Source of the DNA: Pseudomonadota bacterium
GTDB lineage: Bacteria; Myxococcota; JACRCW01; JAFGSX01
Length of the DNA stretch: 64,000 bases
Reading direction: 5' to 3'
Assembly: GCA_043821645.1 (NCBI GenBank)
Contig: JBDRCO010000118.1
Coordinates: 32,001 to 96,000 of the forward strand
Part shown: positions 18,106 through 35,800 of the stretch, piece after piece
Position numbering within the stretch: the stretch's first letter is position 1
How the letters are laid out: every line of letters starts with the position of its first letter
The notes under the pieces: model-generated
What the model was told of the DNA's origin: nothing
Database searches by the model: none
Seen by the model: only the letters and a program-made list of their open reading frames with translations
Made by a program: the position numbers and the translations under genes

Positions 18106-20376
18106 ATGATCGCGCAGGCCCAGACTCGCCCTGCCCGTCAGCTCGTCCTGGCCGTCGTGCTCACCTGCAGCGGTCTGCTATCGGCGTGCCCGGCAGATGG
18201 CACCTGTCAGAGCGCACGCGACTGCGAGGGCGCCCAGGTCTGCGTCAACGCCGCCTGCCGCGACACCTGCAACAGCCGCCTCGAGTGCCACGGCTTCGAG
18301 GCCTGCGTCGACGGCGTCTGCGTTCCCGCGCCCGACTCAGGACATACCACCGACGACGCTTCGATCGCCGATACGGTCCACACAGACCGTTCGAGCCAGG
18401 ACCATGCCGTCCCCCCCGATCAGGGCCAGCAGGATGTGGTTCGCGCGGACCTCGTCGTCGCGGATGTGGAGCTGGACGCGGGCGAGGAAGCGGGCACGGA
18501 CGCGACCATGGACGCAACGGTCACCAGCGACGCCAGCTCGCCGGATCTGGGCAGCAGCGACGGCCCAGGCCTCGACACCATGTCGGGAGACCTGGTCATG
18601 ATCGACGCCAGTACGATGGATGCCGGCGCACCCGACGCTGCCCCCGCCTCGGTGTTCTCACCCATCCTCCTACCCAACGGCGGCTCCGCGGACTGGGTCT
18701 CCGCGTCGCCGGTCAACCCGGAGCGCCTGTACGCCACCCTGGGCGGCGCCCACGTGGTGCGCAGCGACAATGCGGGCAGCCGCTGGACGGACTGCGGTGC
18801 CTTTCCCCGGTGGGGCTTTGCGGCTGTGGCCTCGGTGACCAGCGCGGACAGGGTGTACCTGGCCATGGCCGACGACGTGCTGTTTAGTGACGACGGCTGT
18901 GGCTCCTGGAATTCACTGGGCGTGGGCGAGGAGCCCACGGCCCTGACCGTGGCACCCGGTGACAGAGTCCTGGTCGGCACCCTGAGCGGATTGCGCGTCT
19001 GGGCGACCGGCACCTGGTCGGACCTGCCCTCGCCCCACGACGGTCAGTGGATCAATGCCATCGCGGTGGACAGCAGCGGCGACATCGTGCTGGTGGCCTC
19101 CGAAGAGAATGGCCTGATTCGCTCGGAAAACCGTGGCCGGGACTGGGTGGTCCTGAGCACGGGCCTGACCACCACCCAGCTCTTCGACGTCCAGCTCGAT
19201 GCCACCGACACCGACCACATCCTGGTGGCCTGCGGCGACGGCGTTTTCGTGTCCTGGAACGGTGGGACCAGCTTCTCGCGCACAAAGAGTGGCTGGTTCG
19301 AGGCCGTGGCCATCGATCCCTTGACTCCGGCCAACGTGCTGGTCAGCGGAGCCGATGGCCTGTATCGCAGCAGCGACGGTGGCGACAGCTTTGGCGCGGA
19401 TTGTCGCAGCGCGGGCATGAACAAGGCCTTCGTCAATCACATGCTCTTCGTTCCGGGCAGCGATTCGCGCGCCTACACGGCCACAGCGCGCGGCATGTTT
19501 GTGGCAAGCACGGGGACCTGCAGCTGGCAGGAGATCGACAGCGGCATACAGGCCTGGAACATCCACGAGATCGCCGTGGCGCCGGGCAGCGGCGTGCTCT
19601 ACCTGGCCACGGGTTCGGCGGTGCTCACCGAGCAAAACGGCTGGTTCGTGCGCAGCCAGGGCTACTCGGTCTACAGCTACACGCCGTCGCTGGCTCTCGA
19701 TTTTGGCGATCCAGGAGTGCTCTACGCCGGCGCCGCACACCAGTTGCTGGTCAGCACCAACCTGGCCAGCAGCTTCGACTACCTGACGGGCCCGGGCAGC
19801 GACTGGGCCTACTTCTCGGTGCAGGCGCGGGGCGACCAGATCTACGCCGGCACCGACGACCAGCTCGTGGTCTCGAGCAACGGCGGACAGAGCTTCAGCT
19901 TTCGCGACATCGACGGCCAGAAGCGCCGAGTCAGCGAGATCGTGGTCCTCGACTGGCAGCTGCCCGCGCTGCTGCTGGGAACTGGCTCCGGGCTGTTCTA
20001 CACCGAAGACGAGGGCGCCAGCTTCGCCGAGCTGGATCTAGGCATCAGCGCGCCCTGGGTGAGCTCCCTGGCCATGCGCGGCGACGGCAGTCTGGTGGTG
20101 GGCACCGAGGTCGGCGTCTTCATCTCGGCCCCCAATGACCTGTCGAGATTCGCGGCCTGGGGCCTGGACGGCTGCGACATCGCGGACCTGGCTGTGGCCG
20201 GTGACGTCGTTTTCGCGGCCTGCGGTCAGGCCGTGTACGCGCGCGATCCCATGCGCGATCAGTGGAACGAGCGGCCCGGCATGCAGGGCATCTGGGTCGA
20301 GTCGCTGGCGGTCGACGGCAGCACGCGCTTGCTGGTGGGCACCGACGGGCACGGGCTGTTCGAGATGGGGCTGTAA
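18106..20376 (+). CDS. lipoprotein with a Cys-rich N-terminus and BNR/Asp-box beta-propellers (VPS10/GH74/Ycf48-like)
   Basis: Lipobox LLSAC, DA-rich linker, repeated S.DGG.SF/W Asp-boxes. Confidence 0.8.
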   Translation: MIAQAQTRPARQLVLAVVLTCSGLLSACPADGTCQSARDCEGAQVCVNAACRDTCNSRLECHGFEACVDGVCVPAPDSGHTTDDASIADTVHTDRSSQDHAVPPDQGQQDVVRADLVVADVELDAGEEAGTDATMDATVTSDASSPDLGSSDGPGLDTMSGDLVMIDASTMDAGAPDAAPASVFSPILLPNGGSADWVSASPVNPERLYATLGGAHVVRSDNAGSRWTDCGAFPRWGFAAVASVTSADRVYLAMADDVLFSDDGCGSWNSLGVGEEPTALTVAPGDRVLVGTLSGLRVWATGTWSDLPSPHDGQWINAIAVDSSGDIVLVASEENGLIRSENRGRDWVVLSTGLTTTQLFDVQLDATDTDHILVACGDGVFVSWNGGTSFSRTKSGWFEAVAIDPLTPANVLVSGADGLYRSSDGGDSFGADCRSAGMNKAFVNHMLFVPGSDSRAYTATARGMFVASTGTCSWQEIDSGIQAWNIHEIAVAPGSGVLYLATGSAVLTEQNGWFVRSQGYSVYSYTPSLALDFGDPGVLYAGAAHQLLVSTNLASSFDYLTGPGSDWAYFSVQARGDQIYAGTDDQLVVSSNGGQSFSFRDIDGQKRRVSEIVVLDWQLPALLLGTGSGLFYTEDEGASFAELDLGISAPWVSSLAMRGDGSLVVGTEVGVFISAPNDLSRFAAWGLDGCDIADLAVAGDVVFAACGQAVYARDPMRDQWNERPGMQGIWVESLAVDGSTRLLVGTDGHGLFEMGL

Positions 20377-20380
20377 CGGC

Positions 20381-21394
20381 CTACTTCCAGCGCAGGCAAC
20401 GCATGCTGCAGCTCAGCTCCCCGAGGCCATCGGTGGACTGGTCGACGTAGCCGTGCAGGCGCCACAGGTGGGCACTGCCGACCGCACCGCCGGTGTTGTC
20501 GACGGAGCAGTTGCCATCCGAGTTGGAGTAGGAGCTGCTGCCGTGGTTGTGGTGCCAGCGAAACTTGCTGAGCCAGCAAATCGAGGTCTGGTCGGTGTAG
20601 GCTGCCGGCGATTCCAGGTCGCCCGACTGCGAATAGCTCAAGATCGTGAGATTCAGATCGAAGTGGTCCGAGAGCACCAAGCCCGTGAGGGTGCTGTTCG
20701 GAGTCGCCCCAGTGAGCGTCAGGCTCGGCGTCGACAGGCTCTTGTTGACCACGACGTCGTCCCAGAGGTGGATCTTGCGAGTATTGCCCGACCCGGCGCC
20801 CACGATGCCCAGGGCCGTGTTGTCCCAGTCCGGCTTGTAGGAGATCTTGCCCGCGTCGCCGCTGTCGCCGTTGTCCCGAACAAAGGCGATGGTCCGCGGT
20901 CGGTTGGCCGTGTCGGCGCCCACGTCCAGCACGTCTTTCACGCTCAGGGCGCCGTGGACCGTGAAGTCGTGCGCCGCCGAGGCAAAGGGCAGATCGCCCA
21001 GCCGCGCCAGGCCCTGCAGCAGGGTGAAGTCGGCCGCGCCCTGGGGCCTGACCGCGATGGCCAGGTACAGCGCGTTCTGTGCCAGGGTCGCGCTGGTCAG
21101 GGCTTTGTTCTGGCCCAGCAGCACGCCAAAGGCGCCGGCGTTGACAGCCACGCCGCCCTGCTCTGTCCACCACAGGCCGCAGCTGTCCGAAAGCTGGGTC
21201 ACCGTGACCAGACAGGTGGGGTCCGCGGTCGACGTCGCGAACAGTGCGAAGCGAAAGTCGTGCGGGCCGACGGCGGACTGACCAGACAGCTCGAGGTGAC
21301 CCTGATAGGGGATGAGCGGGGAAGCGGTCTGCGCCAGCGAGGCGGCAGGCAACAGGCTGAGCGCCAGCAGGGCAGGCATCAGGGGCCGCGTCAT
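20381..21394 (-). CDS. secreted fibre/adaptor-like protein B (shared N-module, unique Cys/His-containing tip)
   Basis: AGGAGA RBS, signal peptide ending ASLA-Q. N-module IPYQGHLELSG...DFRFALF...LWW.....V..G.FGVLLG...LYLAIAV, paralogous to 21577..22590. Confidence 0.75.
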   Translation of the reverse strand: MTRPLMPALLALSLLPAASLAQTASPLIPYQGHLELSGQSAVGPHDFRFALFATSTADPTCLVTVTQLSDSCGLWWTEQGGVAVNAGAFGVLLGQNKALTSATLAQNALYLAIAVRPQGAADFTLLQGLARLGDLPFASAAHDFTVHGALSVKDVLDVGADTANRPRTIAFVRDNGDSGDAGKISYKPDWDNTALGIVGAGSGNTRKIHLWDDVVVNKSLSTPSLTLTGATPNSTLTGLVLSDHFDLNLTILSYSQSGDLESPAAYTDQTSICWLSKFRWHHNHGSSSYSNSDGNCSVDNTGGAVGSAHLWRLHGYVDQSTDGLGELSCSMRCLRWK

Positions 21395-21576
21395 GGAATC
21401 TCCTGTGGGCCACGCCAAGAGCGGCGGCCGCAGCGAGGTCGCGTCACGCCGTGGATGCTCTTGTTCACTCATTGAATGCCAGAATACTTGCTGCCGTGTT
21501 CACTGCACCGTCGTCTGCCTGGATCCTGGCACAGGGTAAGAGCTTCGAGGTCTTACGCCGGCGACGTACGCGCAGC

Positions 21577-22590
21577 CTACTTGACGCGCATGATCCAGGT
21601 CACCGTGAAGTAGGTGGGCCACACCGCCTCGTTGGGATCGTCCACTGCACGATACACGCTGTACTCCGAGTAGCCCGTGGCCGCGGGAAAGTACACGGTG
21701 TCGTCGTCACCCGTGCCACCCCCACCACCCCACACCGAGTTGTTCACCAGGGTCATGACCGCTGGCGTATCCGCGTAGTTGACCTTCCTCGTCCAGGCGT
21801 AGAACGAGCCACTGACTCCCCCCGTGGCCTTGGCCACCATGTGCTGATGCGCCCCGATTCCAGACACATCGGTGATACCGGTCGTATCGGTTGACTGCGC
21901 TCCGCGAAGAAACTTCCTGCTGTTGTTGAGGTCAGGCGCGTCCAGTCCGGTGAAGGGCGAGTTCGGCACACTGATGGACTGGCCATTGCACTCCACCCAG
22001 TTCCCGGGAAGCGTGCCCGCGGTCCCGCCCATGTGCTTGTACCAGGGGATGATGCTGCCCACGGGGACGACCCCAAAGCCCGAGATCTCGCCCTGGCTGC
22101 TGATGTTGCCCGTGGCGGCGATGCTGCCGCCGACGGTGAGGTCTCCCCCCACCGTGAAGTCGCGCGCCGCGGCCGCCCGCGGCACCTCGGCGATGCGCTG
22201 CTTGCCCGCCAGCAGCGTGTAGGCCGAGGCAACGTCCTGCTTGACCGCGATGGCCAGGTACACCTCCGGTTGTGCCAGCACCGCATTGCTCAGGGGGTGC
22301 GACGCCTGCCCGAGCAGCACGCCGAAGGTGCCGTCGCGAACCAGCACGTCGTCGAGCTGTGTCCACCACAGGCCGCAGCTGTCCGTCGGCTGGGTCGCCG
22401 TGACCAGGCAGCCAGCATCACCGTCGGCTGCAGCAAACAGCCCGAACCTGAAATCATGCACGCCGCTGGCGGCCTGGCCCGACAGCTCGAGCCGACCGGT
22501 GTAGGGGATCCTGGGGCTCTGGGCCAGGGCCCGTGGGGCTTCGAGGACCAGAGCCAGGCAGGCCAGACAGGACAAGGAGTGTTTCTTCAT
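21577..22590 (-). CDS. secreted fibre/adaptor-like protein A with a phage tail-collar domain
   Basis: Signal peptide ending ALA-Q and the same N-module. Then VPVGSIIPW...PGNWVECNGQ...PDLN...FLRG (tail collar), AHQH, and terminal P.Y.TV.WIMRVK. Confidence 0.75.
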   Translation of the reverse strand: MKKHSLSCLACLALVLEAPRALAQSPRIPYTGRLELSGQAASGVHDFRFGLFAAADGDAGCLVTATQPTDSCGLWWTQLDDVLVRDGTFGVLLGQASHPLSNAVLAQPEVYLAIAVKQDVASAYTLLAGKQRIAEVPRAAAARDFTVGGDLTVGGSIAATGNISSQGEISGFGVVPVGSIIPWYKHMGGTAGTLPGNWVECNGQSISVPNSPFTGLDAPDLNNSRKFLRGAQSTDTTGITDVSGIGAHQHMVAKATGGVSGSFYAWTRKVNYADTPAVMTLVNNSVWGGGGGTGDDDTVYFPAATGYSEYSVYRAVDDPNEAVWPTYFTVTWIMRVK

Positions 22591-22781: not shown

Positions 22782-25700
22782 TCAGGGCAGGACGGACGGA
22801 TGGATGGCGTAGCCCGTGGCGCCGCAGCCACCGTCCACCGCGTTCTGGCACAGCGGCGTGGTGGCTGTGACCTGGGCTGGCACGTAGCCGCGCAGGGTGT
22901 AGCCGGAGCCCTGTGCGTCGCCGGACCCCGCGTCGGGGTTCTCGCGCAGCGGGGTGCCCTCGCTGGCCTGCACCGCGCCGCACAACCAGTAGCCACTGCG
23001 GGGGCCCAGGCTGTAGTCCGACGACAGGAACAGGTAGGTGGGATCGACACCGGGGTCGTAGCTGCCATTGAGGGGGTTCGCTCCGGGGCAGCCGATCTCG
23101 CAGCCTATGCCACCGTAGTTGTAATCGCAGCCGCAGGTAAGTGCTCCGAAGGCCTCGAGACGGCCCGCGCCCCGGATGCTGGCGTCGGGATCGGAAACGT
23201 CCAAAAAGCCCGGACACATCTGCCGCCACTCAACCCACTCGTTGATGCAGCCGCCGGTGTAGTCCGCATCGTAGTCGTAGCCGTCATAGCTGCGCGCCAC
23301 CCAGGCCACGTGGTCCTGCACCGCGCTGCTGGTGATCACGCTGCGGTCGATGACCTGGTCGCAGGTGATGTCGCTGGCCGAGCCGCTGGCAAAGCCACAC
23401 TGGTTGAGGTGGTAAGGCCTGTGCACGACAGAGGGCGTGGCCGGCACGGTGTCGAGGTAGGTGATGTCGTCGATGTCGACGAGGGTGGGATCACTGGGAT
23501 CGGGACTGACGCGCATGACGCCACAGCGGAACTGGCTGTAGTGCGTCATGCCGCGCCAGGGATCGTCGGTCACGGCCAGGCCGTCACACAGGCCGTGGGC
23601 CGGGATGGCGGCATAGGAGCCGATGCCGGCAGGGGGCGCGGGGGTGCGCGGCGAGGTCCGGGGCCGCCAGGCCGCGTCCCAGCTGTAGGTGCAGGCTCCG
23701 GCTGCCGTGGAGCAGTCGTATTCTGCAAAGTCGTAGGCCTTGAGGTCGTTGACATCGAAGGCGCTGTCGCGGCGACGGCTGCAGCTCTGCCAGTAAGCGT
23801 CGGTGGCCGGATCCTCGATGGCATAACCCAGGGGGAAGCCCGCGTCGCAGCGCGAGCGCTCGACGATGAAGTAGGTGCCGGCGTCGAAGTAGCCGCTGTA
23901 CAGCTCGGTGTAGTAGCCCAGCTTGTTGAACACCTTCTGCCAGTCCTCACCCGTCGACACGTTGTGGCTCTCGACCTGGTCGGTCGAGCCGTTCTGGTTG
24001 AGATCCACCGGGCTGTCCATGCACACCTTGGTCGGGGAGTTGACCTCGGCGGGCACGAAGCGCCGGGCGCCGTAGGTCGGCAGCGCATTCTGATCATCGC
24101 GGTCGTTGCGAGTGGTCTCGTACAGCACGACGTGGTCCCGGCCGCCGGTCAGGGTGCCAAAGGTCGCGGCCACGTCGAGAACCTTCTGCTGGCCCCACTC
24201 GTTGACCAGAGAGAACTGGAACACCTGCTTGAGATCGCAGCGCGCATTGAGCACGGGCGTCCAGTCGTCCTGGAAGGCGCCGTACTCGGCCAGCGACGCC
24301 ACCCGGATCTGGTACACTTTCTGGTTGACCCAGCCGTCGCCATCCCTGTCGCACTCCACCGCCACGCCACCCGAGGTGCCCGAGTCCCAGAAGTAGCCGG
24401 GCTGGGTCTCGCAGTAGCAGTTGCCGTTGCGGTCGGTCACCGGCCACAGGTCACCGGTCAGGGCGGTCCCCGCGACGCAGCTGAGCGAGCAGGTCTTGCA
24501 GGACTGGTTGTAGCGGTCCCAGACCTGACCGCTCTGTGGGCACTGGCTCTTGCGGCAGTAGGCGGCGTTGGTCACGTCGAACTGCACGCAGTGAAAACCC
24601 GAGGCCGTGGGGCACATGTCGTCGCTGGTGCAGGGCGTGTTGGGAATGCACAGGTCGCTGTCCGCGTCGTACAGGTAACCGGTCGCGCAGTCGCCGCACT
24701 GCGCATCCTCGAGCAGGGTCGCCTCGACGCACAGCCTGTGCGTGTCTGTGCAATCCTGGGCAATGCTGTTGTCCGCACCCACCTCGCAGTTGAGCACCGC
24801 CACGCAGGTGCCGGCGCTGTCTGTCCAGTGGGGCAGGCAGTCACTGCAGTAGACGCCACCGCTGTCGCTGGCACAGGCGCGATGGGCATCGCTGCACGCG
24901 GGGCAACTGATGCAATCGCTGCACCCGGTGTAGGTGTGTGCCACACAGGTCCCGCCATCGTCGTGATAACCCACCACGCAGGCGCCGCAGGTGGCATCGC
25001 CGCAACCGGTGGCCGCGGTGCAATCGCGGTGCTGCAGCGTGCAGTCGCCACAGCTGACGGCGGCCCGGCAGACGCCATCGACCTCGGCGTCGGGACCGAT
25101 GAAGCAGCTGCTGACCTCGCTGAAGCACGGGCCGCAGTGCGCGCCGGCGGTATCCTCGACACAGACGCGATGCTTGCCGTCGCAGTCGGCCAGGATGCTG
25201 GCCTCGGCGCTGGCCTGGCAATTGGCGTGGGGGATGGCCTCGCACTGCTGCAGCGAGCTGTTCCAGCGGTAACCCGAGGCGCACTCGTCGAGACAGTGGT
25301 ACTGGCCACCGCTGTTGTCGCACAGCCGCTGCGCGCCGCAGGCCAGCTCCGTACACGAGGTGGCCACGCGACAGCGCTGGCTGGTGTCGTCGCACACCAG
25401 GTCGATGTCACAGCTGCCCTGGGCGCAGGGGCAGCCCTCGGTGTTGATGGGGCAGGCGTGGCACGTGCCGTCGCCGCACACCAGGTCCGCGTCGCAGGCG
25501 TCATCGACGCCGCAGGTGCAGCCTTCGCTGCCGTCGCTGCAACCCGCGGGCACACAGCGATCCTCCGCGCAGTTCAGGCCGTTGTCACAGGCGCCGTCGC
25601 GGCAGGGGCAGCTCGCGGCACCGCGCGCGCAGGGCTGGCACACGCCGTCGGTACAGCCCGCGCCCTCGGTGCAGTACTGGCTGTCGAGGCAGGCGCAGCC

Positions 25701-25985
25701 GGTCTCACCGTCGATGCAGTTGGTGCACAGGCCCGCGACACAGACGGCCCCTGCCCCGTAACGCGCGTCCCCGGCACAGTCGGTCGGTGCCGCGCAGGCC
25801 ACGCACTTTCCATCCTTGCACAGCGTCCCGATGTCCTCGGCCAGCCCCTTGCAGTCCGCACTGGTGGTGCAGTCGGGCTTGGTGGGGACAGGCGGTTCCG
25901 GGGGACAGCCCATCCAGGACGTGGCACCCAGGAGAACGAGCGCGGGCAACAACAGCGAGTTCGGACGGAGACGAAGGCAGTTCAT
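22782..25985 (-). CDS. large Cys-rich lipoprotein (1067 aa) with an uncharacterised C-terminal globular region
   Basis: Lipobox SWMGC. CxxGxxGCxC and EGF-like repeats. DRDGDG and DLNQNG Ca-binding-like loops. Confidence 0.8.
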   Translation of the reverse strand: MNCLRLRPNSLLLPALVLLGATSWMGCPPEPPVPTKPDCTTSADCKGLAEDIGTLCKDGKCVACAAPTDCAGDARYGAGAVCVAGLCTNCIDGETGCACLDSQYCTEGAGCTDGVCQPCARGAASCPCRDGACDNGLNCAEDRCVPAGCSDGSEGCTCGVDDACDADLVCGDGTCHACPINTEGCPCAQGSCDIDLVCDDTSQRCRVATSCTELACGAQRLCDNSGGQYHCLDECASGYRWNSSLQQCEAIPHANCQASAEASILADCDGKHRVCVEDTAGAHCGPCFSEVSSCFIGPDAEVDGVCRAAVSCGDCTLQHRDCTAATGCGDATCGACVVGYHDDGGTCVAHTYTGCSDCISCPACSDAHRACASDSGGVYCSDCLPHWTDSAGTCVAVLNCEVGADNSIAQDCTDTHRLCVEATLLEDAQCGDCATGYLYDADSDLCIPNTPCTSDDMCPTASGFHCVQFDVTNAAYCRKSQCPQSGQVWDRYNQSCKTCSLSCVAGTALTGDLWPVTDRNGNCYCETQPGYFWDSGTSGGVAVECDRDGDGWVNQKVYQIRVASLAEYGAFQDDWTPVLNARCDLKQVFQFSLVNEWGQQKVLDVAATFGTLTGGRDHVVLYETTRNDRDDQNALPTYGARRFVPAEVNSPTKVCMDSPVDLNQNGSTDQVESHNVSTGEDWQKVFNKLGYYTELYSGYFDAGTYFIVERSRCDAGFPLGYAIEDPATDAYWQSCSRRRDSAFDVNDLKAYDFAEYDCSTAAGACTYSWDAAWRPRTSPRTPAPPAGIGSYAAIPAHGLCDGLAVTDDPWRGMTHYSQFRCGVMRVSPDPSDPTLVDIDDITYLDTVPATPSVVHRPYHLNQCGFASGSASDITCDQVIDRSVITSSAVQDHVAWVARSYDGYDYDADYTGGCINEWVEWRQMCPGFLDVSDPDASIRGAGRLEAFGALTCGCDYNYGGIGCEIGCPGANPLNGSYDPGVDPTYLFLSSDYSLGPRSGYWLCGAVQASEGTPLRENPDAGSGDAQGSGYTLRGYVPAQVTATTPLCQNAVDGGCGATGYAIHPSVLP

Positions 25986-26040: not shown

Positions 26041-29000
26041 TCAGAAAACCGTGAAGTCCGTATAGTACAGATACAGACGGATATCCGTCATCCCGTCGAG
26101 CGAGATGTCCTGGTTGGCCGTCTCGTCGACCATGTTCAGCACCAGCTCCCAGCGCGTGTTCAGGTAGGGACGATCGGTGAAGCGCGTGTTGCGATACACC
26201 GTGGGATCGAACGCATTCTGGTCCAGGAAGAACACGTTGATGACAGCCGTGCGCTCGGGGAAGGTGAAGTACAGGATCTCGTCGCTCACCGAGGACACCG
26301 CCGAGGTGCCGCGTGCACGCAGGTAGAGGCGCGCGGTCTGGTCGCCGTAATCAGACCCGATGATCTGGGCTTGCACGTACTTGATCTTGTGGTTGCGCGT
26401 CAGCGGTGACAGCTCGTCGAGCTGGCTGCTGAAGGGCACCGTGATGTAGCCCGCCTCGTCGAGGATCGCCGGGTCCTGCAGACGCTCCCGGAACAGGGCG
26501 ATGCGCTCGCCCTGGCTCAGCGGCGCCCCCACCGCGCTCAGGGTGGGGATGCGCATGATGTCGTCGCGCAGCGACAGCCGGGTCACGCGCAGATCGGGGT
26601 TGCCGTACTGGTCCTCGAACTCCCGGAACGCGTCCTCGAGCTCGATCAGGTAGTTCTGCAGGTTGTAGTCGCCACGGGTGATCATGCGCACCAAAAACAG
26701 CTGGTCGAGGCGCGCGTAGCTCTGGCTGGTGTAGTACTCGTACACCCGGGTCGCCTTGTAGACCTCGCGCAGCGCCGAGTAAAAGGTCTTGTCGGCGTTG
26801 ATCACGGCGTCGTTGCGATAGATGCGCACGTTGGGGTTGTTGCGCGCTGCCTCGACGTTGATGGTCAGCTGCTGGGTCTCCTCGAGCTCGTCCTGCAGTC
26901 GCTTGGCCTGCTGCCTCAGCTGCTGCACCCGCGACATGGCCTGCTGCATCTCGTAGGCCCCGCGCAGCGCATCCACCTGCAGTTCGTTGAGGCGCAGGTT
27001 GATGGTCTTCACCCGGGCCGCGCTGTCGATCTGATTGAGCCCATCTCCGTCGTCATTGCACTGCATGTCGAAGCTGATCTGACCCTCTTGCTTTTGCAGG
27101 TCGCGCAGCTTGTCCTGCTTGGCCGTGATGGTGGCATGCAGGGCGGCCTGGGCCACCTCGTTGACACCGATGGCGACGCCAAAGATGGTGGCCGAGATCG
27201 CCGCCGCCGGGCAGTCCGAGCCATTGGACAGGCCCGCGACGATCATGCACTTGCCCAGTCCGGCGATGGTCTGGGCGGCCTGGAGCACGCGGTCCGCTTC
27301 CTGCGAGGCATAGCCGCACCAGTCGATGACGTCCTGCACGCTGTCTTGCTGGTCGCGCAGGCTCACGTAGGTGCTGCGGAAGGAGTCCACCGCGTTGCAG
27401 GCGGCGTTGATCCGGTCTTCCTCGATCTTGGCCTCGGCGATGGTGTTGTCCATGGATACGCGGACCTTCTGCATGTCCACGATCTCGAGGTCGATGGCGC
27501 CCATGGCCTCGTGCAGCTGGCCAGTGCCCATGAGGCCGCAGGGATCCCCGAGCAGCTCGGCGCGGGGATCCAGGTACGCGTACTTGCGGATCGCCGGGTA
27601 CACGTGCGAGCCCGCGGCGAAGGTGCCGCACAGCTCGGCGAGCTGGCCCTCGTAGTTGTTCTCGACCCGGATCAGCTCGCTCTGAAAGCTCGCCTCGTCG
27701 ACATCGAAGCTGCGCGTGGTCTGCAGCGCCACGTCCTCGGCCTGCTGCGCGATCTGCAGGCGCTGCCAGGCGCGGGCGCCCAGCACCTCGAAGCCGTTGT
27801 CCCGGGCCACCGAGGCCTCGGTCGAGGGGAAGGGGATGTAGTCCGGCGCGTAGCCAAAGTAGTTGATCTCGTCGCTGATGGCATCGTACTGGCTGCGCAT
27901 CTCGGTCAGCGCCACGCGGTAACTGATCTGAGCGTCCTGGATGGACTTGGAGATCTGCGCCACGTTCTCGGGCCGAGTCGAGTCGCCAATGCGCTGCATC
28001 AGGTTGGTCAGGATGATGGACTCGAGGTAGGCCGCCGTGTAGCCGCGCTCGATGACCAGGCGCGCCAGATCTGGCCGGTTGAAGTTCTGGTAGCGCTTGC
28101 TCACCTCGCTCCACACCTTGACCTTTTGGGTCGAGGCTCTGATCAGACGCCCCAGGTACTCGACCACCGTCTCCTGGCCGGCGATCTCTGGCAGTCCCTG
28201 GTCGAGTGCGCTCTGCAGCGCCGGCAGCAGGTGGAAGAAGCGCTCGAGCCCGAGCTGGTAGTACTGGGTCGCCCGGTACAGGTTGTACATCTCGGCACCG
28301 GCAATGCCCGACAGATTGATGCCGCCCGGCTCGAATAGCGAACCCTCGAACGAGGCCACGTTGAGCCCCGCGAGGTCAAAACGCGAACTCAGAGCCTTGG
28401 TGTAGCCGTCGTCACCCAGCATGACCAGCAGCTCGACGTACAGCTTCTCGAAGCCAGAGTGATAGATCGTGGTGTCCAAATCAGGGTCCCGCTGTGCGTC
28501 GTAGGCCAGGGTCTCGTGCAGGAAGATGCGCGACTTGTCACGCATGGTGGTCGACAGCTCGTCGTAGCGATGGACGTAGAGCGCGAGCAGGCAATCGATG
28601 CGCTCCTGGGCCTGGCGAATGCCCTCGGGGTCAAAGCAGTAGGGCACGGTCTCGGCCGAGGCCTGACACAGCGAGGGCACGAAGCCCAGTCCTGTCCCCT
28701 GCCGGTTCTGGAAACGCGTGCGGTAGCGGAAGGCGTCGTCCACGGCCGAGGCCAGGGGCAAGAAGGCCACCTGGCTGCTCTGGCCCATCTTGTAGAAGTT
28801 CTTGCCGGCGCGCAGCTCGAGCCTGTCCGTCGAGCAGTACACCTGGTTGGAGTCCTGACAGGTCCACACCAGATCGGCATCGCCGGGTGCGATCTGTCCC
28901 TGCAGCACCCGGCCCTGGCGCTGCCAGTCGAGCAGGGTCGCCTTGCAGCCCAGGGTCTTGTCGTGCTGATGCTGGCGGCAGTCATGGCCGTCGATGGTGG

Positions 29001-32000
29001 AGCGAGAGATGACGCCGCGGTCGACGGAGAAGTAGATGATCCGACTTCCCGGCGGGCAGGCGTGGAGGTCTTCATCCCCCGAGGTGGCGATGCTGCCCTT
29101 GTCGAAGAGGTCGGTCTCCTCGCACAGGTAGTGCACCATCTCGCCGGTGGCATCCGCCTCGTCGATGAGCTGCGGGGTCTGGGTGGTGTCGCGACCGAAC
29201 AGCAGCACGCTGGCCAGGGGGCTCGGATCGTCCGAGGGACCGATGCCCACGCCCATGCGCGAGTTCAACTCCGCGAGCAAGGTTGGCGAGCAGGCCAGGG
29301 GGGCCGGCGAGGTCTGTGTTCCCAGGTTGGTGGGAGGCACCGAGCCCTGGTAGGCCGTCTCGTCGAGGTCCGTCTCGCCTCTCCGCAGCACCATGTAGCC
29401 ATAGGCCACCAGGTCGTTGGCCGGATCGTTGTCGAACAGGGACAGCACGCGCTCTCGGAACACCAGGAACAGCGTGTCGGTATTGATGAGCGCACCGTCC
29501 ACCAGCTCGATGTGGCGACGTCGTTCGCGACCGTCGGGCACAGGATTGGCGCCGGCCAGGCTACGGTCGAGGTCGGCGGTACCGCTGCCACTCAGGGGCA
29601 TGGTGCTGTCGCGGCACTCGTTGCGGTAGCGACGGCCGGTCTCGGCGTCCAGCGTGCTCCCGGCTTGCAGACCCGGCACCAGCCAGGGCACCTGCTGCGG
29701 CTGGTAGCGACTCGAGCAGGCGTCGGAGATGTAGCGGCCGCCGACCGCGATGTCGGCGTCGAAGCTCTGCATGAAGACCATGCAGCCGGCTTCACCCTCG
29801 CTCGAGCACTGAGCGGGATCGTTGGCAAAGCGGATGTCCAGGGCCGGATTGCCGGCGTACTGCAAGGCCCGCAGGCTGTCGATGCGACCATGGTAGACCG
29901 AGGCCGAGGCGGCGCTGGGCGCGATGTTCATGGCAAAGGGGTACTCGACCACGCCCGAGGGCACGGGCTCTTCGTCCGGTTCGAAGGTGTAGACCTCGTA
30001 GCCATCGGTGTTGAGGTAGGGGTAGCAGATGCGGCCAGCGCCGCATTTCTCGCGCATGGCGGCCGAACGCCACGACTCGGTGCGGGTCGAGGTGAGCAGG
30101 GCCCTGAACTTCATCAGGTCGAAATGCTGGGTGCGAAAGCGCGCCCAGGCTTGCAGGAAGCCATTCTTGATCCCCGCCACCAGGGCATCATCGTGCGCGC
30201 CCTGCTGCCACGCTTGCAGTCCGTTCTCGTCGACGCGGAAATCACCGAAGTAGTAGATCGAGCCTGTCCAGGACCCGATGGGGCGCTCGCTGTAGCGCAG
30301 CAGCACGGTCTTGCGCACGGTGCCATTGTCGACCTCGAGCTGGCCGGCCCACAGGCTCTGGCCAAACCCCGTGGCGCCCTGGACCGAGAGCACGGCGCTC
30401 TGTCCTGACGCCAGTGCAAACGACAGGCTCACGCCGTCGCTGGTCCCGAGCGAGGTGCCTTCGTGCTCGGCGCCAAGGCTCAACCACCACAGCGGGCAGT
30501 TGGGGTGCTCGCAGATCAGGCGGCAGTCACTGCCTTGACACACACAGCCAGGCTCGCTGCCACTGCAGCTGGGCAGGTGACACACGTCGTCACTGTCGCA
30601 GCTCAGTGCCAGACCCGAGCTCAGCGGCGCGCAGATCTTCTCGGCATTCACGGTGCGGCAGCGGCAGCCCGGCGTGCCCGCGGTGCAGGCATCGATGTCG
30701 CGCCGCCTCTCGTCGCCACGCACGGCCAGAGCGATCTCGCGCTTGCGGTCCTGGGCGTCGGTGTAGGTGTGCTTGAGCTTGCGCACGGTGTAGCTCGCGG
30801 TGGCGCGCGAGGTGTTGGTCACCACCACGGTGCCCGCGCCCATGCCCGTGCTGAAGGTCAGCTGCGCGGGTTGCACGCTGAAGGGCTCGGGCGGGGTCTG
30901 GTCCGCGCTGACGTCACTGTCGCCATAGGGCATGCAGACGCCGGGCTCGCCGTAGGCCGCGTCGCAGAAGTAATCGCGCGGCGGGCAGGTGTCGTCGCCC
31001 TGGGTGCAGCTGAGGCGACACACGTGCTGCTTGCACTCGGCGCCGCTGATGCAGTCGTCCGAGGACATGCAGTTGGTGCGACACATGCCCTGCAGGCAGG
31101 TGTGGAACTGCGGACAGTCGACGTCTCGCTGGCAGCTGTGCGGGCTCTCTCCGGGGACCAGGCACTGGCCGGGGTCGACGCAGGAGCGGCCGGGCAGGCA
31201 GCCCTCCATCAAGCCTTCGGACGAGCAGGTGTGAATGCCGTCCGCCCCTTCGTAGCCGTCGTTGCAGGGCGTGTAGCACTTGACCGCGGGGTTCGCGCTC
31301 AGGGAGAAGCCGGCGGTGGCGACGCACATCCCGCCCTGGCACTCAAGCCCGGCGTTGCAGCCACTCTGGTCATTGCAGCCGCAGGCCTGGGTGCCGGTGC
31401 TGCAGGGCACGCACACGGCGTCCTGGCAGCGGTTGCCGCGCAGGCAGCCCCCGCTCGCGTCGCAGGGTCCGCCGGTGGATCCGGTGCCGTCGACGCACAG
31501 GCGACCGGCCTGGCACAGCAGGCCAGGGTTGCAGCCTCCGCCAGCGCAGGCGCAGTTCTCGGTGCCGGCGCTGCAGCCATCGGGCATACAATAGCCATCG
31601 CGACAGCTCACGTCGTCGTCGACACACTGGTAGCCTGCCAGGCAGGCGCAGCCGGTCTGTCCGGGGGCGCACTGCGAGGACATGCAGACGTTGCTGGAGT
31701 CGCAGGTCAGCAGCTCGTTGGCGGCGCTCACCCCGCAGTGCCCGCCCTCCTGGCAAGCGCACCCTTCTCGACCCAGCGGGCACACCACGGGCACGCACAG
31801 GTTCTGCGCTCCGCACATCAGGCTGTCATCGCTGCACAGGCCACCGCTGAGGCAGCGACAGCCCTCGGTGCCGGGCGGGCAGGCGGCCAGCTCACACACG
31901 TTGTCGGTGTTACAGGCGTGCTGCTCGTCGCTGCAGCTGCCGTCCGACAGGCAGGCACAGCCCAGGGCACCGTCGTCACATGCAGGCTGCTGGCAGGTGC

Positions 32001-32226
32001 CGCTCACGCACTGCAGCGCAACGCCCGCCGCGTCGTCGAGACAGGTGCCGTCGGTCAGGCAATCGCAGCCGAGGGTGCCCAGGGTACAGGCGGCATCGGC
32101 ATGGGTGCCGGCGTCGGGCTTCGGCTCCTCGGGCCCGCAGGCCAGCGCCAGGACGGGCAACAGCAGCGCGAGCCCCCGCGTCCACAAGTGTCGACTGCGA
32201 CCGAGACGACGTGCGTTCTGGGACAT
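26041..32226 (-). CDS. giant lipoprotein (2061 aa): Cys-rich stalk plus a TcA-like channel and TcB-binding C-terminus
   Basis: Lipobox LALAC and many CxxGxxGCxC repeats. C-terminal coiled coil, hydrophobic hairpin, second coiled coil, then LSL, HKIKYV and RPYLNTRWELVL...ISLDGMTDIRLYLYYT. The CDS is certain; the TcA-like call is by motif order. Confidence 0.65.
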   Translation of the reverse strand: MSQNARRLGRSRHLWTRGLALLLPVLALACGPEEPKPDAGTHADAACTLGTLGCDCLTDGTCLDDAAGVALQCVSGTCQQPACDDGALGCACLSDGSCSDEQHACNTDNVCELAACPPGTEGCRCLSGGLCSDDSLMCGAQNLCVPVVCPLGREGCACQEGGHCGVSAANELLTCDSSNVCMSSQCAPGQTGCACLAGYQCVDDDVSCRDGYCMPDGCSAGTENCACAGGGCNPGLLCQAGRLCVDGTGSTGGPCDASGGCLRGNRCQDAVCVPCSTGTQACGCNDQSGCNAGLECQGGMCVATAGFSLSANPAVKCYTPCNDGYEGADGIHTCSSEGLMEGCLPGRSCVDPGQCLVPGESPHSCQRDVDCPQFHTCLQGMCRTNCMSSDDCISGAECKQHVCRLSCTQGDDTCPPRDYFCDAAYGEPGVCMPYGDSDVSADQTPPEPFSVQPAQLTFSTGMGAGTVVVTNTSRATASYTVRKLKHTYTDAQDRKREIALAVRGDERRRDIDACTAGTPGCRCRTVNAEKICAPLSSGLALSCDSDDVCHLPSCSGSEPGCVCQGSDCRLICEHPNCPLWWLSLGAEHEGTSLGTSDGVSLSFALASGQSAVLSVQGATGFGQSLWAGQLEVDNGTVRKTVLLRYSERPIGSWTGSIYYFGDFRVDENGLQAWQQGAHDDALVAGIKNGFLQAWARFRTQHFDLMKFRALLTSTRTESWRSAAMREKCGAGRICYPYLNTDGYEVYTFEPDEEPVPSGVVEYPFAMNIAPSAASASVYHGRIDSLRALQYAGNPALDIRFANDPAQCSSEGEAGCMVFMQSFDADIAVGGRYISDACSSRYQPQQVPWLVPGLQAGSTLDAETGRRYRNECRDSTMPLSGSGTADLDRSLAGANPVPDGRERRRHIELVDGALINTDTLFLVFRERVLSLFDNDPANDLVAYGYMVLRRGETDLDETAYQGSVPPTNLGTQTSPAPLACSPTLLAELNSRMGVGIGPSDDPSPLASVLLFGRDTTQTPQLIDEADATGEMVHYLCEETDLFDKGSIATSGDEDLHACPPGSRIIYFSVDRGVISRSTIDGHDCRQHQHDKTLGCKATLLDWQRQGRVLQGQIAPGDADLVWTCQDSNQVYCSTDRLELRAGKNFYKMGQSSQVAFLPLASAVDDAFRYRTRFQNRQGTGLGFVPSLCQASAETVPYCFDPEGIRQAQERIDCLLALYVHRYDELSTTMRDKSRIFLHETLAYDAQRDPDLDTTIYHSGFEKLYVELLVMLGDDGYTKALSSRFDLAGLNVASFEGSLFEPGGINLSGIAGAEMYNLYRATQYYQLGLERFFHLLPALQSALDQGLPEIAGQETVVEYLGRLIRASTQKVKVWSEVSKRYQNFNRPDLARLVIERGYTAAYLESIILTNLMQRIGDSTRPENVAQISKSIQDAQISYRVALTEMRSQYDAISDEINYFGYAPDYIPFPSTEASVARDNGFEVLGARAWQRLQIAQQAEDVALQTTRSFDVDEASFQSELIRVENNYEGQLAELCGTFAAGSHVYPAIRKYAYLDPRAELLGDPCGLMGTGQLHEAMGAIDLEIVDMQKVRVSMDNTIAEAKIEEDRINAACNAVDSFRSTYVSLRDQQDSVQDVIDWCGYASQEADRVLQAAQTIAGLGKCMIVAGLSNGSDCPAAAISATIFGVAIGVNEVAQAALHATITAKQDKLRDLQKQEGQISFDMQCNDDGDGLNQIDSAARVKTINLRLNELQVDALRGAYEMQQAMSRVQQLRQQAKRLQDELEETQQLTINVEAARNNPNVRIYRNDAVINADKTFYSALREVYKATRVYEYYTSQSYARLDQLFLVRMITRGDYNLQNYLIELEDAFREFEDQYGNPDLRVTRLSLRDDIMRIPTLSAVGAPLSQGERIALFRERLQDPAILDEAGYITVPFSSQLDELSPLTRNHKIKYVQAQIIGSDYGDQTARLYLRARGTSAVSSVSDEILYFTFPERTAVINVFFLDQNAFDPTVYRNTRFTDRPYLNTRWELVLNMVDETANQDISLDGMTDIRLYLYYTDFTVF

Positions 32227-32253: not shown

Positions 32254-32793
32254 TCAGTTCCCGAGATTGAGCGACACGCTGGCACCGGCCAGGGCCGCAC
32301 CGTCGTGGCCAAAGCAAGACGAGGTGACAACCTGCAGGGCGGCCAGCGAGCCTGCGCCACCGGGCTTGAGGGTCAGTTCCACGTCGCTCGCAGCAATGGC
32401 CGTGTCGGCGGCTGCGGTAAAGGCCAGGGCCAGGCGATCACCCTCGTGGATGGCCTTGCCCTGCAGCGCGCTGCCGTAGACCACCTGCACGTCGGTGGCG
32501 TGCTCGAGCAGAACCTCGCAGGCGCGCGCGTCGGGACTGCTGACCACCAAGCCCACCTGGGCCACCACGGGCTGGCACAGCTCGGCGCGGCATTCGAGTC
32601 CGGCGTTGCACTGCCCCGCATGGCAGGCGCAACCCTGCGTGCCAGGCGTGCAAGCCACCGTGGCGTCCTTGGTCTCGGGAGGTGGGTTGCAGCCATCGCA
32701 GGCCGCGCCGAGCACCAACGCCAGGACACACAGCCCCGAAACACCTGCGCGCGCGAAGCCACGAACCCGGCTCAGGGTGTTCTTGTGTCGCAT
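32254..32793 (-). CDS. small lipoprotein with one Cys-rich repeat and a beta-sandwich (possibly cohesin-like) domain
   Basis: GGAGG RBS before ATG 32793. Lipobox LGAAC. CTPGTQGCAC repeat like those of the next gene. Alternating beta-strand pattern. Confidence 0.7.
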   Translation of the reverse strand: MRHKNTLSRVRGFARAGVSGLCVLALVLGAACDGCNPPPETKDATVACTPGTQGCACHAGQCNAGLECRAELCQPVVAQVGLVVSSPDARACEVLLEHATDVQVVYGSALQGKAIHEGDRLALAFTAAADTAIAASDVELTLKPGGAGSLAALQVVTSSCFGHDGAALAGASVSLNLGN

Positions 32794-32842
32794 TCGAACC
32801 TCCAGCGTCGCGACCAGGCGACGCGTGCCTGGCCGGTCACCA

Positions 32843-35800
32843 TCACCACGTGTGACTGACGTCTGCACTCATGGCTGCGTGGTTGATCAATCCTGCCGTC
32901 GAGACGATGGTCTTGACGCCCTGCACGCCCAGAGAAATGCCGATGAGAGCCTTGGTCACCTGCGCGCCCGCCAGGGCGGTCCTGGTGACGCTCGCCGTCG
33001 ACGCAATGATGCCGACAACATCGAGCAGGAAGCCGCCTCCGATGTGATCGATCGAATGGTCGTAGAGCTTCTGCTGACCCTTGGACATGCTGCCCCCACC
33101 CGCAAGGATCTTGTTGCCCTTGACGATGGTCTTGGCGCTCTGGACGGTCCGGAATACATCGAACAGGGTTCCAGCCGCACTGCCAGCGACGAGGATGCTC
33201 GCCACCACAGGGGCCGCAGCACCGAAGGTCATGACTGTTGCGGCGATGCCGAGTCCGAGCGCGATCACGGCAGTGGCGATTCGAAGCGCCGCGAAGATCT
33301 TGGGGTGCTTGACGATGAAGGGCTTGAGCTTGTTGGTCAGGGCGTTGCGCGTCGCCTTGTACAGCGTGTAGGGCGACTTGATGACCTTCCAGGCGCCCTT
33401 GCCAAAAGCCTTGAGACCGCGGCCAACGGCATTGAGCCTCTCACCTGTGCCGTCGGGGTCAAAACCCGAGACCGGATTGTCCGAGACGTAGGCGTAGCCG
33501 GTGGTCGACTCGCTGAGGACCTCGGCGTCGACGCCATCCTTGGTGAAGGTCAAGAAGGCGGGGTCGACGCTGTTCCAGCGCCCCAGATCCGGGTCGAGCA
33601 GGCGGTTCGCGAAGTGCAGCAGACCGCTGCCCTGGTCGATCTCCTGGCCGCTGAAGCCGAACTCGCCGAGCTCGCCGCTCTGGTAGCGCACTCCTCCATA
33701 GGGGAAGTAGCGACGGAGCCCGGTGATCTCGCCCTGGCTATCCGTCGCCAGGGTCACGCTGCCGGTGTGGTCGTAGTGCAGGTAGCGGTCGGTGTCCCGG
33801 TTGTCGACGAGGAGCCGGCGCGCTGCGCCCAGCAACAGGCGATCGACGGGCGAGGCCGGTTCGCTGCTCTGCACGATGCCCGCCTGCGCGGCCTGGGCGA
33901 TCCAGGCGTCACCAGCGGTGATCGCGTCGTCGGGGTTGTCGAGGGGAGCGGGACCCTGGAGCACCTGGGCCTGGATGGCGGTCGAGTCGAGCAGCGCCAG
34001 GCGCAGGTCATCGACGCGCGGGCTCAGGGTGGCCACGCCATCCTTCACCTGGTACTCCGGCGTGATGTAGTGCACCACACCTTCGGCCTCGACCTTGCTC
34101 ACGCGTTCGCGGGTGGCTCCGTAGGCCAGGGCCGTGCGCACGCCGGTGCCGTCGTCGACCTGAACCAGGCGACCCATGAAATCCCAGGCCAGGACCTTGT
34201 CACCGCGAGCGACCATGTTGCCGGCGGTGTCGTAGCTCATGTCCAGCGAACCCGCGGTGGTCACCGCGTTGGGCTGCGTGGCACCGTAGGTGTAGCTGCC
34301 GACGTGACCTTTGCTGGTCGCGCCCAGGCTCGAGGTGGCGCTCAGCAGGTTGTCGATGGCGTCGTAGCCGTAGCTCAGGGTCTCCTCGCCGCTGCGGCCG
34401 GGGTCGAGCACCGCCTGCGTCAGGCGACGGCGTGCATCGTAGCTGTACTGCGCGGCCAGGCCCGGGGTGTCGTCGGCAGGCGCCTCGAGGTCCTGGCTTT
34501 CGAGCAGCAGGTTGCCGCGGCTGTAGCGGTAGCGGGCGCCTTGCAGCAGGGTGCTGCCACGACGCAGGGACATCTCGCTGGGGCGCATGCGGCTGTCGTA
34601 GCTGCGCGCGTAGGTGAGCCCGTTGCCGTAGCTAAGCTGGCTGAGCTTGCCCTGCGCGTCGTAGGCGATCGCGGGGACCGCTTCACCCAGCGACGTGGGT
34701 CGTGACGCCGCGTCGTAGCCATAGTTCAGCACCCGGCCATCGGGATAGCGCGTGCTCAGCATCCGTCCGGCGTTGTCGAAGGCCGTGCTGACCTCGAACC
34801 AGAAACCTTCGAGCTGGCGGGCGGTGTAGATCTGGGCGTTGCGGACGTTGTAGCCAAAACGATCCTCGCCGGCGGGGTACTGCAGCGCGGCCAGGCGGCC
34901 GGCCAGGTTGGTGCACTTGGCCGCATCGCAGGCAGGCAGCGCGTCGTAGACGGCGCGGGCCAGGGTGGCGTCGCGGTTGCCGTCCTCGAAGCGTTCGAAC
35001 AGGCGGTTGTTGCCGTCGTATGCCGCGCGGGTCACCTTGCCGCGGCCATCGGTCAGGCGAACCACGTTCCCGGCGTCATCGTACGCGTAGCGCAGGGTGC
35101 CGGCGTTGGGGTCGTCGATCTGAACGACGCGACCCGCCAGGTCGTAGCGCTGCAACTTCTCGTGACCGAGGGCGTCGATGTAGCCCTGCACGTTGCCCAG
35201 CTCGTCGTAGGTGACCTGCAGGATCTCCGGTGTACCGCTGGCCTCGCTCAGGCGCTCGACGGTGAGGACACGCCCCAGCCCATCCATGTGCTGAACCGCG
35301 GGTGTGTCGGAGAAGGGGCTGCTGGCATCGCTGTCGTCCTCGTCAAAGATCAGGGTCTTGAGCGGCAGGTACTCGAACTTCTGCTGCGAGTTCGAGGTGT
35401 ACAGATCGGCGTCCTGGTGCGTGGCGATCAGCGGCCTGTCCAGCGCGTCGTAGCGCTGTGCATCGTAAGGCGTCCCGGCCGGGGGCGTGAGGTCACAGCT
35501 GGCCGATGTGGAGCCGTAGGGCTGGTAGGCCCTCTGCACCTGGCCGCGCAGGTTGAAGGTGGCGAAGCCTGCCACCTGGTACTGCCCGCTCTCGACGAGC
35601 ATGCGCTCCTGCACGGTGCGGCCTCGGCCATCCAGGCACTTGATGTGCTCGAGGTCGAGAGCACCGCCGACCTGCGTGCGGCTGCGCGTGATCACCCGGC
35701 TCACCGGGGACGCCAGCTCGTAGCTGTAGGTCTCGGTCGGGGCCGCGGCGCTGTCACCACCCGGGAGCACGCGCCAGGTCAGGCGCCCCATGTCGTCGTA

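Follow-up and report, generated by a model that had tools for sequence, protein, structure and literature searches.

The closest described relatives of the proteins studied here are the mosaic adhesive trimer (MAT) fibres, a family described in 2024, 21 of which were reported in Bdellovibrio (Caulton et al. 2024, PMC10769870). According to the part of that paper that was available, the partner of the MAT N-terminal domain is unknown and the domain has no homologue in the PDB, the family includes proteins of Myxococcales and Bradymonadaceae, and surface display and binding of target-cell glycans were shown for Bdellovibrio proteins only. In this study two paralogous genes, A and B, were characterized in a stretch of 64,000 nucleotides (hereafter the window; G+C content 68%) of a genome of the phylum Myxococcota (GenBank assembly GCA_043821645.1, contig JBDRCO010000118.1, positions 32,001 to 96,000, forward strand). 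They are located beside a divergent cassette of Tc-like genes encoding a TcB/TcC-like fusion protein and the proteins p204, p2061 and p1067. The proteins A and B are very probably short members of the MAT fibre superfamily and, with a probability of roughly 0.55, they would constitute a variable target-recognition accessory of the adjacent cassette, the coupling being read from synteny only.

The two genes indicated in the first-pass annotation of the window are both present; they are on the minus strand and encode 337 amino acids (aa) each. Gene A (21577–22590, start MKKHSL at 22590) encodes a predicted secreted short fibre of MAT type with a collar-like tip, and gene B (20381–21394, start MTRPLMP at 21394, with AGGAG 8 nt 5' of the ATG) a predicted secreted short fibre of the same type. 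Protein A comprises a signal peptide read from the sequence (22519–22590, residues 1–24, with a presumed cleavage site between ALA and Q), the beta-rich MAT N-terminal domain or N-module (22162–22518, residues 25–143; delimited by identity with B, hidden Markov model (HMM) envelope, hhalign and AlphaFold2 (AF2) modelling), a short stalk that forms the main predicted trimer contact (22063–22161, residues 144–176) and a putative degenerate tail-collar region (21820–22062, residues 177–257), in which an HxH motif, HQH, is found (21841–21849, residues 248–250). Protein B comprises an N-module (20969–21328, residues 23–142; BLASTP against A, HMM envelope), a stalk followed by a 'neck' module (20720–20968, residues 143–225; BLASTP against the related proteins P0002 and P0072) and a tip (20381–20719 including the stop codon, residues 226–337) with four Cys and the motif HHNH (residues 281–284, at 20543–20554). 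All these features are on the minus strand, and the motifs described for the two tips in the first-pass annotation are thus present.

The N-modules of A and B were identical at 75 of 129 positions (58%; BLASTP E 6e-44, residues 25–153 of A against 25–152 of B), and no second high-scoring segment pair with an E value below 38 was obtained. The C-terminal parts aligned without significance (30% identity in 90 aa, E 0.039), which confirms the description of a common module after the signal peptide and of tips that diverge beyond it. The exact 26-bp repeat reported between the two genes is also real: a string search located it at 21164–21189 in B and at 22360–22385 in A, with exactly two occurrences, and 0 matches were obtained in 100 shuffles. 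It codes for the conserved peptide DSCGLWWT. The DNA identity of the two modules was 68.2%, the same codon was used at 48 of the 75 identical residues, and the G+C content at third codon positions was 0.85 and 0.89; peptide conservation together with codon bias explains the 26-bp run, and gene conversion, which was considered as its source, is unneeded. The pair would have originated by local duplication followed by replacement of a tip. A search for close homologues of A retrieved six proteins in all, A and B included, and comparisons of A and B with Pfam, NCBIfam and PDB sequences gave nothing useful.

To determine the number of N-module genes, the genome to which the window belongs (hereafter the own genome, G000) was searched in six frames with an iterated HMM. 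The 19 matches obtained correspond to about 18 genes or fragments on 13 contigs; 15 of the modules are complete, two are partial and one is interrupted by TAG. This provides the genome-wide count of paralogues called for in the first-pass annotation. In the interrupted gene (contig C68, 317272–318216, minus strand) the in-frame TAG falls midway through the module; this gene may be a pseudogene, or the TAG may reflect a sequencing error. A profile built from the 15 own-genome N-modules was compared by hhalign with a profile of 16 fibre N-domains from one genome of Bdellovibrio bacteriovorus, which was located by means of a primer published in PMC10769870, and a probability of 97.2% was obtained (E 4.2e-11, 108 columns); positions 2–112 of the former align with positions 25–161 of the Bdellovibrio alignment, beginning right after the signal peptide. 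When the own-genome profile was run over the B. bacteriovorus genome, it matched open reading frames of 1265 and 1964 aa (E 1e-4 and 3.7e-3, respectively), and the N-domain of the 1265-aa open reading frame matches 16 paralogues of 606–1964 aa in the same genome. Against a single homologue of bd2740 the hhalign E value was 0.026, in what is a weak single-sequence comparison.

The own-genome profile was also searched against a library of 1.84 billion proteins, where 74,180 clusters were matched at E ≤1e-3 and 35,489 at E ≤1e-10; the module starts nearly always at residues 22–45, in proteins of 250–450 aa. Structural neighbours of the module in the ESM Atlas (template modelling (TM) score 0.65–0.70) are the N-termini of proteins that end in Peptidase_S74, FGE-sulfatase or collagen domains, and the label on the aligned part of the module is PF30789. 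No sequence relative in the PDB was found with the module profile or with the sequence of A, and no Pfam family scored above its cut-off on the module in the 94 top library matches scanned. Judged by these profile comparisons, the N-module is the widespread MAT N-terminal domain and not one private to this locus, and the idea that it is an adaptor restricted to the upstream machine was discarded. Four proteins with the module (P0042, P0056, P0066 and P0085) have an HTH_17 (excisionase-like) domain at residues ~4–58, before the module, which could be due to a mis-called start or represent a real fusion.

The likeness to the MAT fibres extends to the whole architecture. As in those proteins, a conserved, beta-rich N-domain of some 130 aa, for which the PDB has no relative, comes after a signal peptide, the fibre is a trimer (in the case of A, by prediction), the tips are variable and swapped, and each genome contains many paralogues. 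They differ in size, the Bdellovibrio fibres having 626–1959 aa, in comparison with 337 aa in A and B and a stalk of about 33 residues. The collar-type tip of A and the tip type of B are not found in Tables S1 and S3 of the paper describing the family (PMC10769870).

The predicted structure of A is consistent with a trimeric fibre. In the AF2 model of the monomer the predicted local distance difference test (pLDDT) exceeded 90 over about residues 30–130; a Foldseek comparison of this model with the PDB gave 0 matches at E ≤1e-3, with only generic beta-sandwiches. Three copies of A (residues 23–337) scored 0.87, 0.88 and 0.87 when modelled together, whereas the best-scoring of three controls reached 0.00. 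At least 74% of the contacts agreed among the runs and the partner pLDDT was at least 72; of 30 proteins solved as same-chain pairs, 20 reached the mark used for these scores, as did 1 of 23 solved as single chains, a calibration that applies only roughly here. The predicted contacts involve residues 133–176, 178–189, 221–248 and 319–337; the stalk interface (residues 133–176) was found in all three copies, and HQH lies at an inter-chain contact (residues 235–248 and 250). The trimeric fibre proposed in the first-pass annotation is therefore supported by the trimer prediction, for A. Each protein would be exported by means of its Sec signal and, probably, displayed at the cell surface as a homotrimer held together by a short intertwined stalk and by the tip, with the conserved beta-rich domain as its base and the variable C-terminal tip as the end that would bind a ligand.

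The Pfam Collar model (PF07484), proposed as a check, gave no match to A even at E 10. The PHROG 1800 family ('tail collar fiber protein') matched residues 90–252 of A (E 6e-8), and residues 177–257 of A aligned with residues 171–248 of P0054, in which the Pfam Collar domain occupies residues 172–221. The tail-collar assignment of the first-pass annotation thus stands on the PHROG match and the P0054 alignment and fails with the Pfam model; the first part of the tip of A is probably a degenerate tail-collar domain, missed by Pfam, and its HxH would be axial. The PHROG 1800 alignment begins within the N-module of A; some phage tail-collar fibre proteins may share the end of the N-module as well as the collar.

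Compared with phage tail-collar fibres (PF07484; tips of the T4 gp12 type), A resembles them in the aligned Collar region, in the position of its HxH at the predicted trimer contact, and in having a paralogue with a true Collar domain on contig C38; it differs in failing the Pfam model, in its Sec signal and in the absence of a phage context. That A and B are remnants of a prophage tail-fibre module, a reading to which the PHROG match and weak Foldseek matches to the short tail fibre of T4 lend some colour, is highly improbable: a scan of 29 proteins of the window detected no phage structural family, A and B each carry a Sec signal, and the family is chromosomal, multi-copy and matches the MAT fibres. 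The suggestion in the first-pass annotation of domesticated phage fibres was not supported.

Direct evidence of module shuffling is provided by P0002, a mosaic in which an N-module and a neck like that of B precede a tip like that of A (63% identity to residues 144–337 of A, with HQH conserved). By BLASTP, the neck of B (residues about 160–225) is common to P0072 and P0002. No relative of the B tip was found in Pfam, PHROG, NCBIfam or the PDB; a VOMI-like tip was considered and rejected, as the alignment of B with P0072 ends before the VOMI domain of the latter. In B, the shared neck is followed by a tip that contains Cys and His residues. Among the 94 top family matches the tips recognized by Pfam were Collar (four), VOMI (four), and SRCR, C1q, Xlink, Pgp3_C and Gp53-like_C (one each); of the paralogues of the own genome, the one on C38 has the true Pfam Collar (E 3.8e-22) and another an SRCR domain (E 4e-21).

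The genes upstream of A had been described as a Tc-like machine, and this was corroborated by the Pfam domains of the TcB/TcC-like fusion and by the TcA-like fold of p2061. The fusion protein (32843–39163, minus strand, 2106 aa) contains SpvB (E 3.1e-25), TcdB_toxin_midN (E 1.2e-24), RHS (E 2.5e-22) and FG-GAP (E 1.2e-19) domains and is the sole SpvB or TcdB_midN match in the genome. Its variable C-terminal end of ~190 aa contains Gly/Ala-rich hydrophobic stretches resembling membrane helices, a feature that hints at a membrane-active payload. It is followed by p204 (32254–32868), a small Cys-rich probable lipoprotein; p2061 (26041–32226), a divergent TcA-like protein by Foldseek, with a lipobox-like N-terminus and a Cys-rich N-half (77 Cys in 600 residues); and p1067 (22782–25985), a Cys-rich probable lipoprotein (98 Cys) with a conserved C-terminal region of ~600 aa, all of them on the minus strand. 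In relatives where it was found, p204 is encoded directly upstream of p2061, and p1067 adjoins p2061 in nearly all cassettes examined. A role of p204 as an immunity protein was considered and rejected, since in relatives it goes with p2061 and not with the TcB/TcC gene.

The last 1002 aa of p2061 were modelled with 28 homologues (pLDDT 71.9); the model has very long helices and, after them, a beta domain. The 22 best Foldseek matches in the PDB were all TcA proteins (TcdA1, XptA1, XptA2, TcdA4, TcaA-TcaB and YenA), with E values from 3.8e-9 to 1.1e-4 over 715–1043 columns and TM scores by query of only 0.17–0.25. No sequence relative of p2061 or p1067 was found in Pfam, NCBIfam or the PDB; a profile of p2061 retrieved coiled-coil noise only from the PDB (best E 0.073), and a profile of p1067 nothing. 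VRP1 and TcA_TcB_BD were absent from p2061 by Pfam, and no match was obtained in the genome, in weak searches whose controls also matched nothing. The ESM Atlas contained no model of p1067, and its feature scores were ≤0.80.

With the Tc (ABC) toxins of Photorhabdus, Xenorhabdus and Yersinia the cassette shares the TcB/TcC domains of the 2106-aa protein and the TcA-like helical region and C-terminal beta domain of p2061. It differs from them in that no Pfam TcA family matches, in the N-half of p2061, which to judge from its Cys content is not the usual shell, in the N-termini of all its parts (lipobox-like in p2061, p1067 and p204, and with a signal-like stretch in the TcB/TcC protein), and in the additional conserved p1067, p204 and fibre genes. 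The teneurin-like polymorphic toxins of Myxococcota, as presented in the available part of PMC13018210, are likewise lipoprotein-targeted, surface-exposed toxins with a YD/RHS shell, proposed to act in bacterial competition; they are defined by FN-plug, NHL and YD-shell domains, in contrast to the shell protein described here, which has SpvB, TcdB_midN and FG-GAP domains and a TcA-like partner. These features point to a divergent Tc-like system, presumably tethered to the cell envelope.

In order to assess the association between fibres and cassettes, 201 genomes of the phylum were searched for the C-terminal region of p1067 and for the N-module. The former was found in 29 genomes (the unpublished G196 among them) and the latter in 79, and the N-module was present in 24 of the 29 p1067-positive genomes versus 55 of the 172 others. 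A total of 43 p1067 loci were then studied, 39 from 27 relatives (G196 was left out) and four from the own genome, with up to 9 kb on each side as far as the contig allowed. The recurring cassette comprises p204, p2061 and p1067, with a TcB/TcC gene in 15 of the 43 loci. N-module genes were located within the fetched region of 20 of the 43 loci, in 17 of the 28 genomes, compared with 0.72 expected by random placement, far above chance; in 11 loci they followed p1067 immediately, in the same orientation. In three genomes (G008, G015 and G052) the sole N-module gene of the genome sits in the cassette, and the linkage is retained across several families of the phylum.

Tandem arrays of conserved N-modules with unrelated tips were observed in G111, on C38 of the own genome and in G003, so that the pattern of constant base and variable tip noted for A and B is repeated in several cassettes. 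The clearest is that of G111, in which the N-modules are 79–90% identical and the tips have no mutual similarity; this locus (L083, contig C468, 9144–13128, plus strand) contains four tandem fibre genes straight after p1067. In the arrays of G139 and G105 the tips are related. Within the own genome, paralogues of p1067 were found on contigs C87, C42 and C38, and the further p2061/p1067 copies extend over C87:33694–47500, C42:87–8368 and C38:28028–28816. The C38 copy of p1067 is directly upstream of three tandem module genes, and the C38 pair is orthologous to a linked pair in G003 (tree support 100/98 and 99/89). Contig C87 has two p1067-like genes and a p2061 gene, and no fibre gene was found on it; on C42 the p2061/p1067 pair is cut by the start of the contig.

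On these data, fibres A and B would serve the envelope-tethered Tc-like cassette formed by the TcB/TcC fusion, p204, the TcA-like p2061 and p1067. A less probable explanation, although one to be taken seriously, is that A and B are general-purpose surface adhesins of MAT type, independent of the cassette, and that the adjacency is due to shared regulation or to co-transfer in islands of competition or predation. Several results weigh against the coupling, and some of them favour such independence. In the own genome, 13 of the about 18 module genes are located apart from all copies of the cassette. A scan of 104 neighbour proteins around 10 of the unlinked places, which left four of the 13 genes uncovered, detected no Tc, RHS or phage-structural domains; these places are next to housekeeping genes, and the neighbours include topoisomerase I, RecA, 2-oxoglutarate dehydrogenase and NifU. 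The linkage to Tc-like loci expected in the first-pass annotation is thus the exception among the copies of the own genome, and holds in its recurrence across the phylum. Two of the 'unlinked' fibre genes of the own genome, C138:42456–43718 (SRCR tip) and C9:26938–28998, both on the minus strand, are at contig ends and so may or may not be linked; the p1067 gene that is truncated by the start of C42 might be the one preceding the C138 gene.

Further points on the same side come from the phylum and from the locus itself. No fibre gene was found in the fetched region of 23 of the 43 p1067 loci, many of which are short contigs, and 55 of the 79 module-bearing genomes lack the p1067 family. In the tree, cassette-linked modules are mixed with free ones: seven changes of label were counted, compared with a mean of 9.0 after shuffling, and a count as low was reached in 39 of 500 shuffles. 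The idea of a specialised clade of cassette-linked N-modules was rejected on this topology. The MAT proteins of Bdellovibrio are surface adhesins, according to the available part of PMC10769870, and neither the p2061 profile nor the p1067 profile matched anything in the Bdellovibrio genome that contains the 16 fibres. The gaps before A and B (191 and 182 bp) exceed those within the cassette core (27–55 bp), and a scan for promoters and terminators, which yielded 0 promoter-like sites and one terminator-like site on the wrong strand, was uninformative. In addition, the tip of A was poorly modelled as a monomer (pLDDT <50 for residues 231–325), and the related genomes compared are non-independent samples. 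Independent adhesins, on the other hand, would not account well for linkage in 20 loci where 0.72 were expected, for its retention across several families, for the orthology of the C38 and G003 pairs, or for the three genomes whose only fibre gene is in a cassette; a recognition accessory of the cassette is the reading preferred here.

A more specific proposal, the strict form of the interpretation in the first-pass annotation, is that the N-module docks on p1067 or else on p2061, the TcA-like protein, which would make the fibres detachable receptor-binding subunits of a toxin particle. The Tc particle of Yersinia entomophaga is decorated with separately encoded chitinases. In favour of docking are the 11 loci in which fibre genes come immediately after p1067 in the same orientation, and the lack of a known partner for the N-domain noted in PMC10769870. 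Nevertheless, proteins with this N-domain number in the tens of thousands and also occur in genomes that lack p1067, and no cassette-specific clade of N-modules exists, so that docking in this form is decidedly unlikely. Any contact of A and B with the cassette would be conjectural, as would their service to it. Rather unlikely as well, and put forward tentatively, is the evolutionary scenario in which a lipoprotein-anchored Tc-like lineage gave over target recognition to separate trimeric MAT fibres with exchangeable tips, which would dock by their N-domain on p1067 or p2061.

On the other side of the fibre genes, a gene on the plus strand (18106–20376) converges on gene B with a gap of 4 bp. 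It encodes a secreted protein of 756 aa with Sortilin/BNR-like repeats and a Cys-rich, DUF7107-like start, and no homologue of this protein was seen in the 39 loci of the relatives.

The available part of PMC10769870 makes no mention of recurrent linkage with a Tc-like cassette, and a literature search, in which supplements were covered for that paper, found no publication on the linkage of MAT fibres and Tc-like cassettes. Apparently unpublished are the very short form of the fibres, the collar-type tip and, most notably, the repeated occurrence of fibre arrays next to a divergent Tc-like cassette of lipoprotein type. Fibres of the kind that predatory bacteria use to grip prey are found next to a Tc-like system, and this linkage makes testable both what the MAT N-domain binds and how Tc-like machines without the usual receptor-binding shell find their targets. 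If docking were true, the MAT N-domain would have its first candidate partner in p1067 or p2061.

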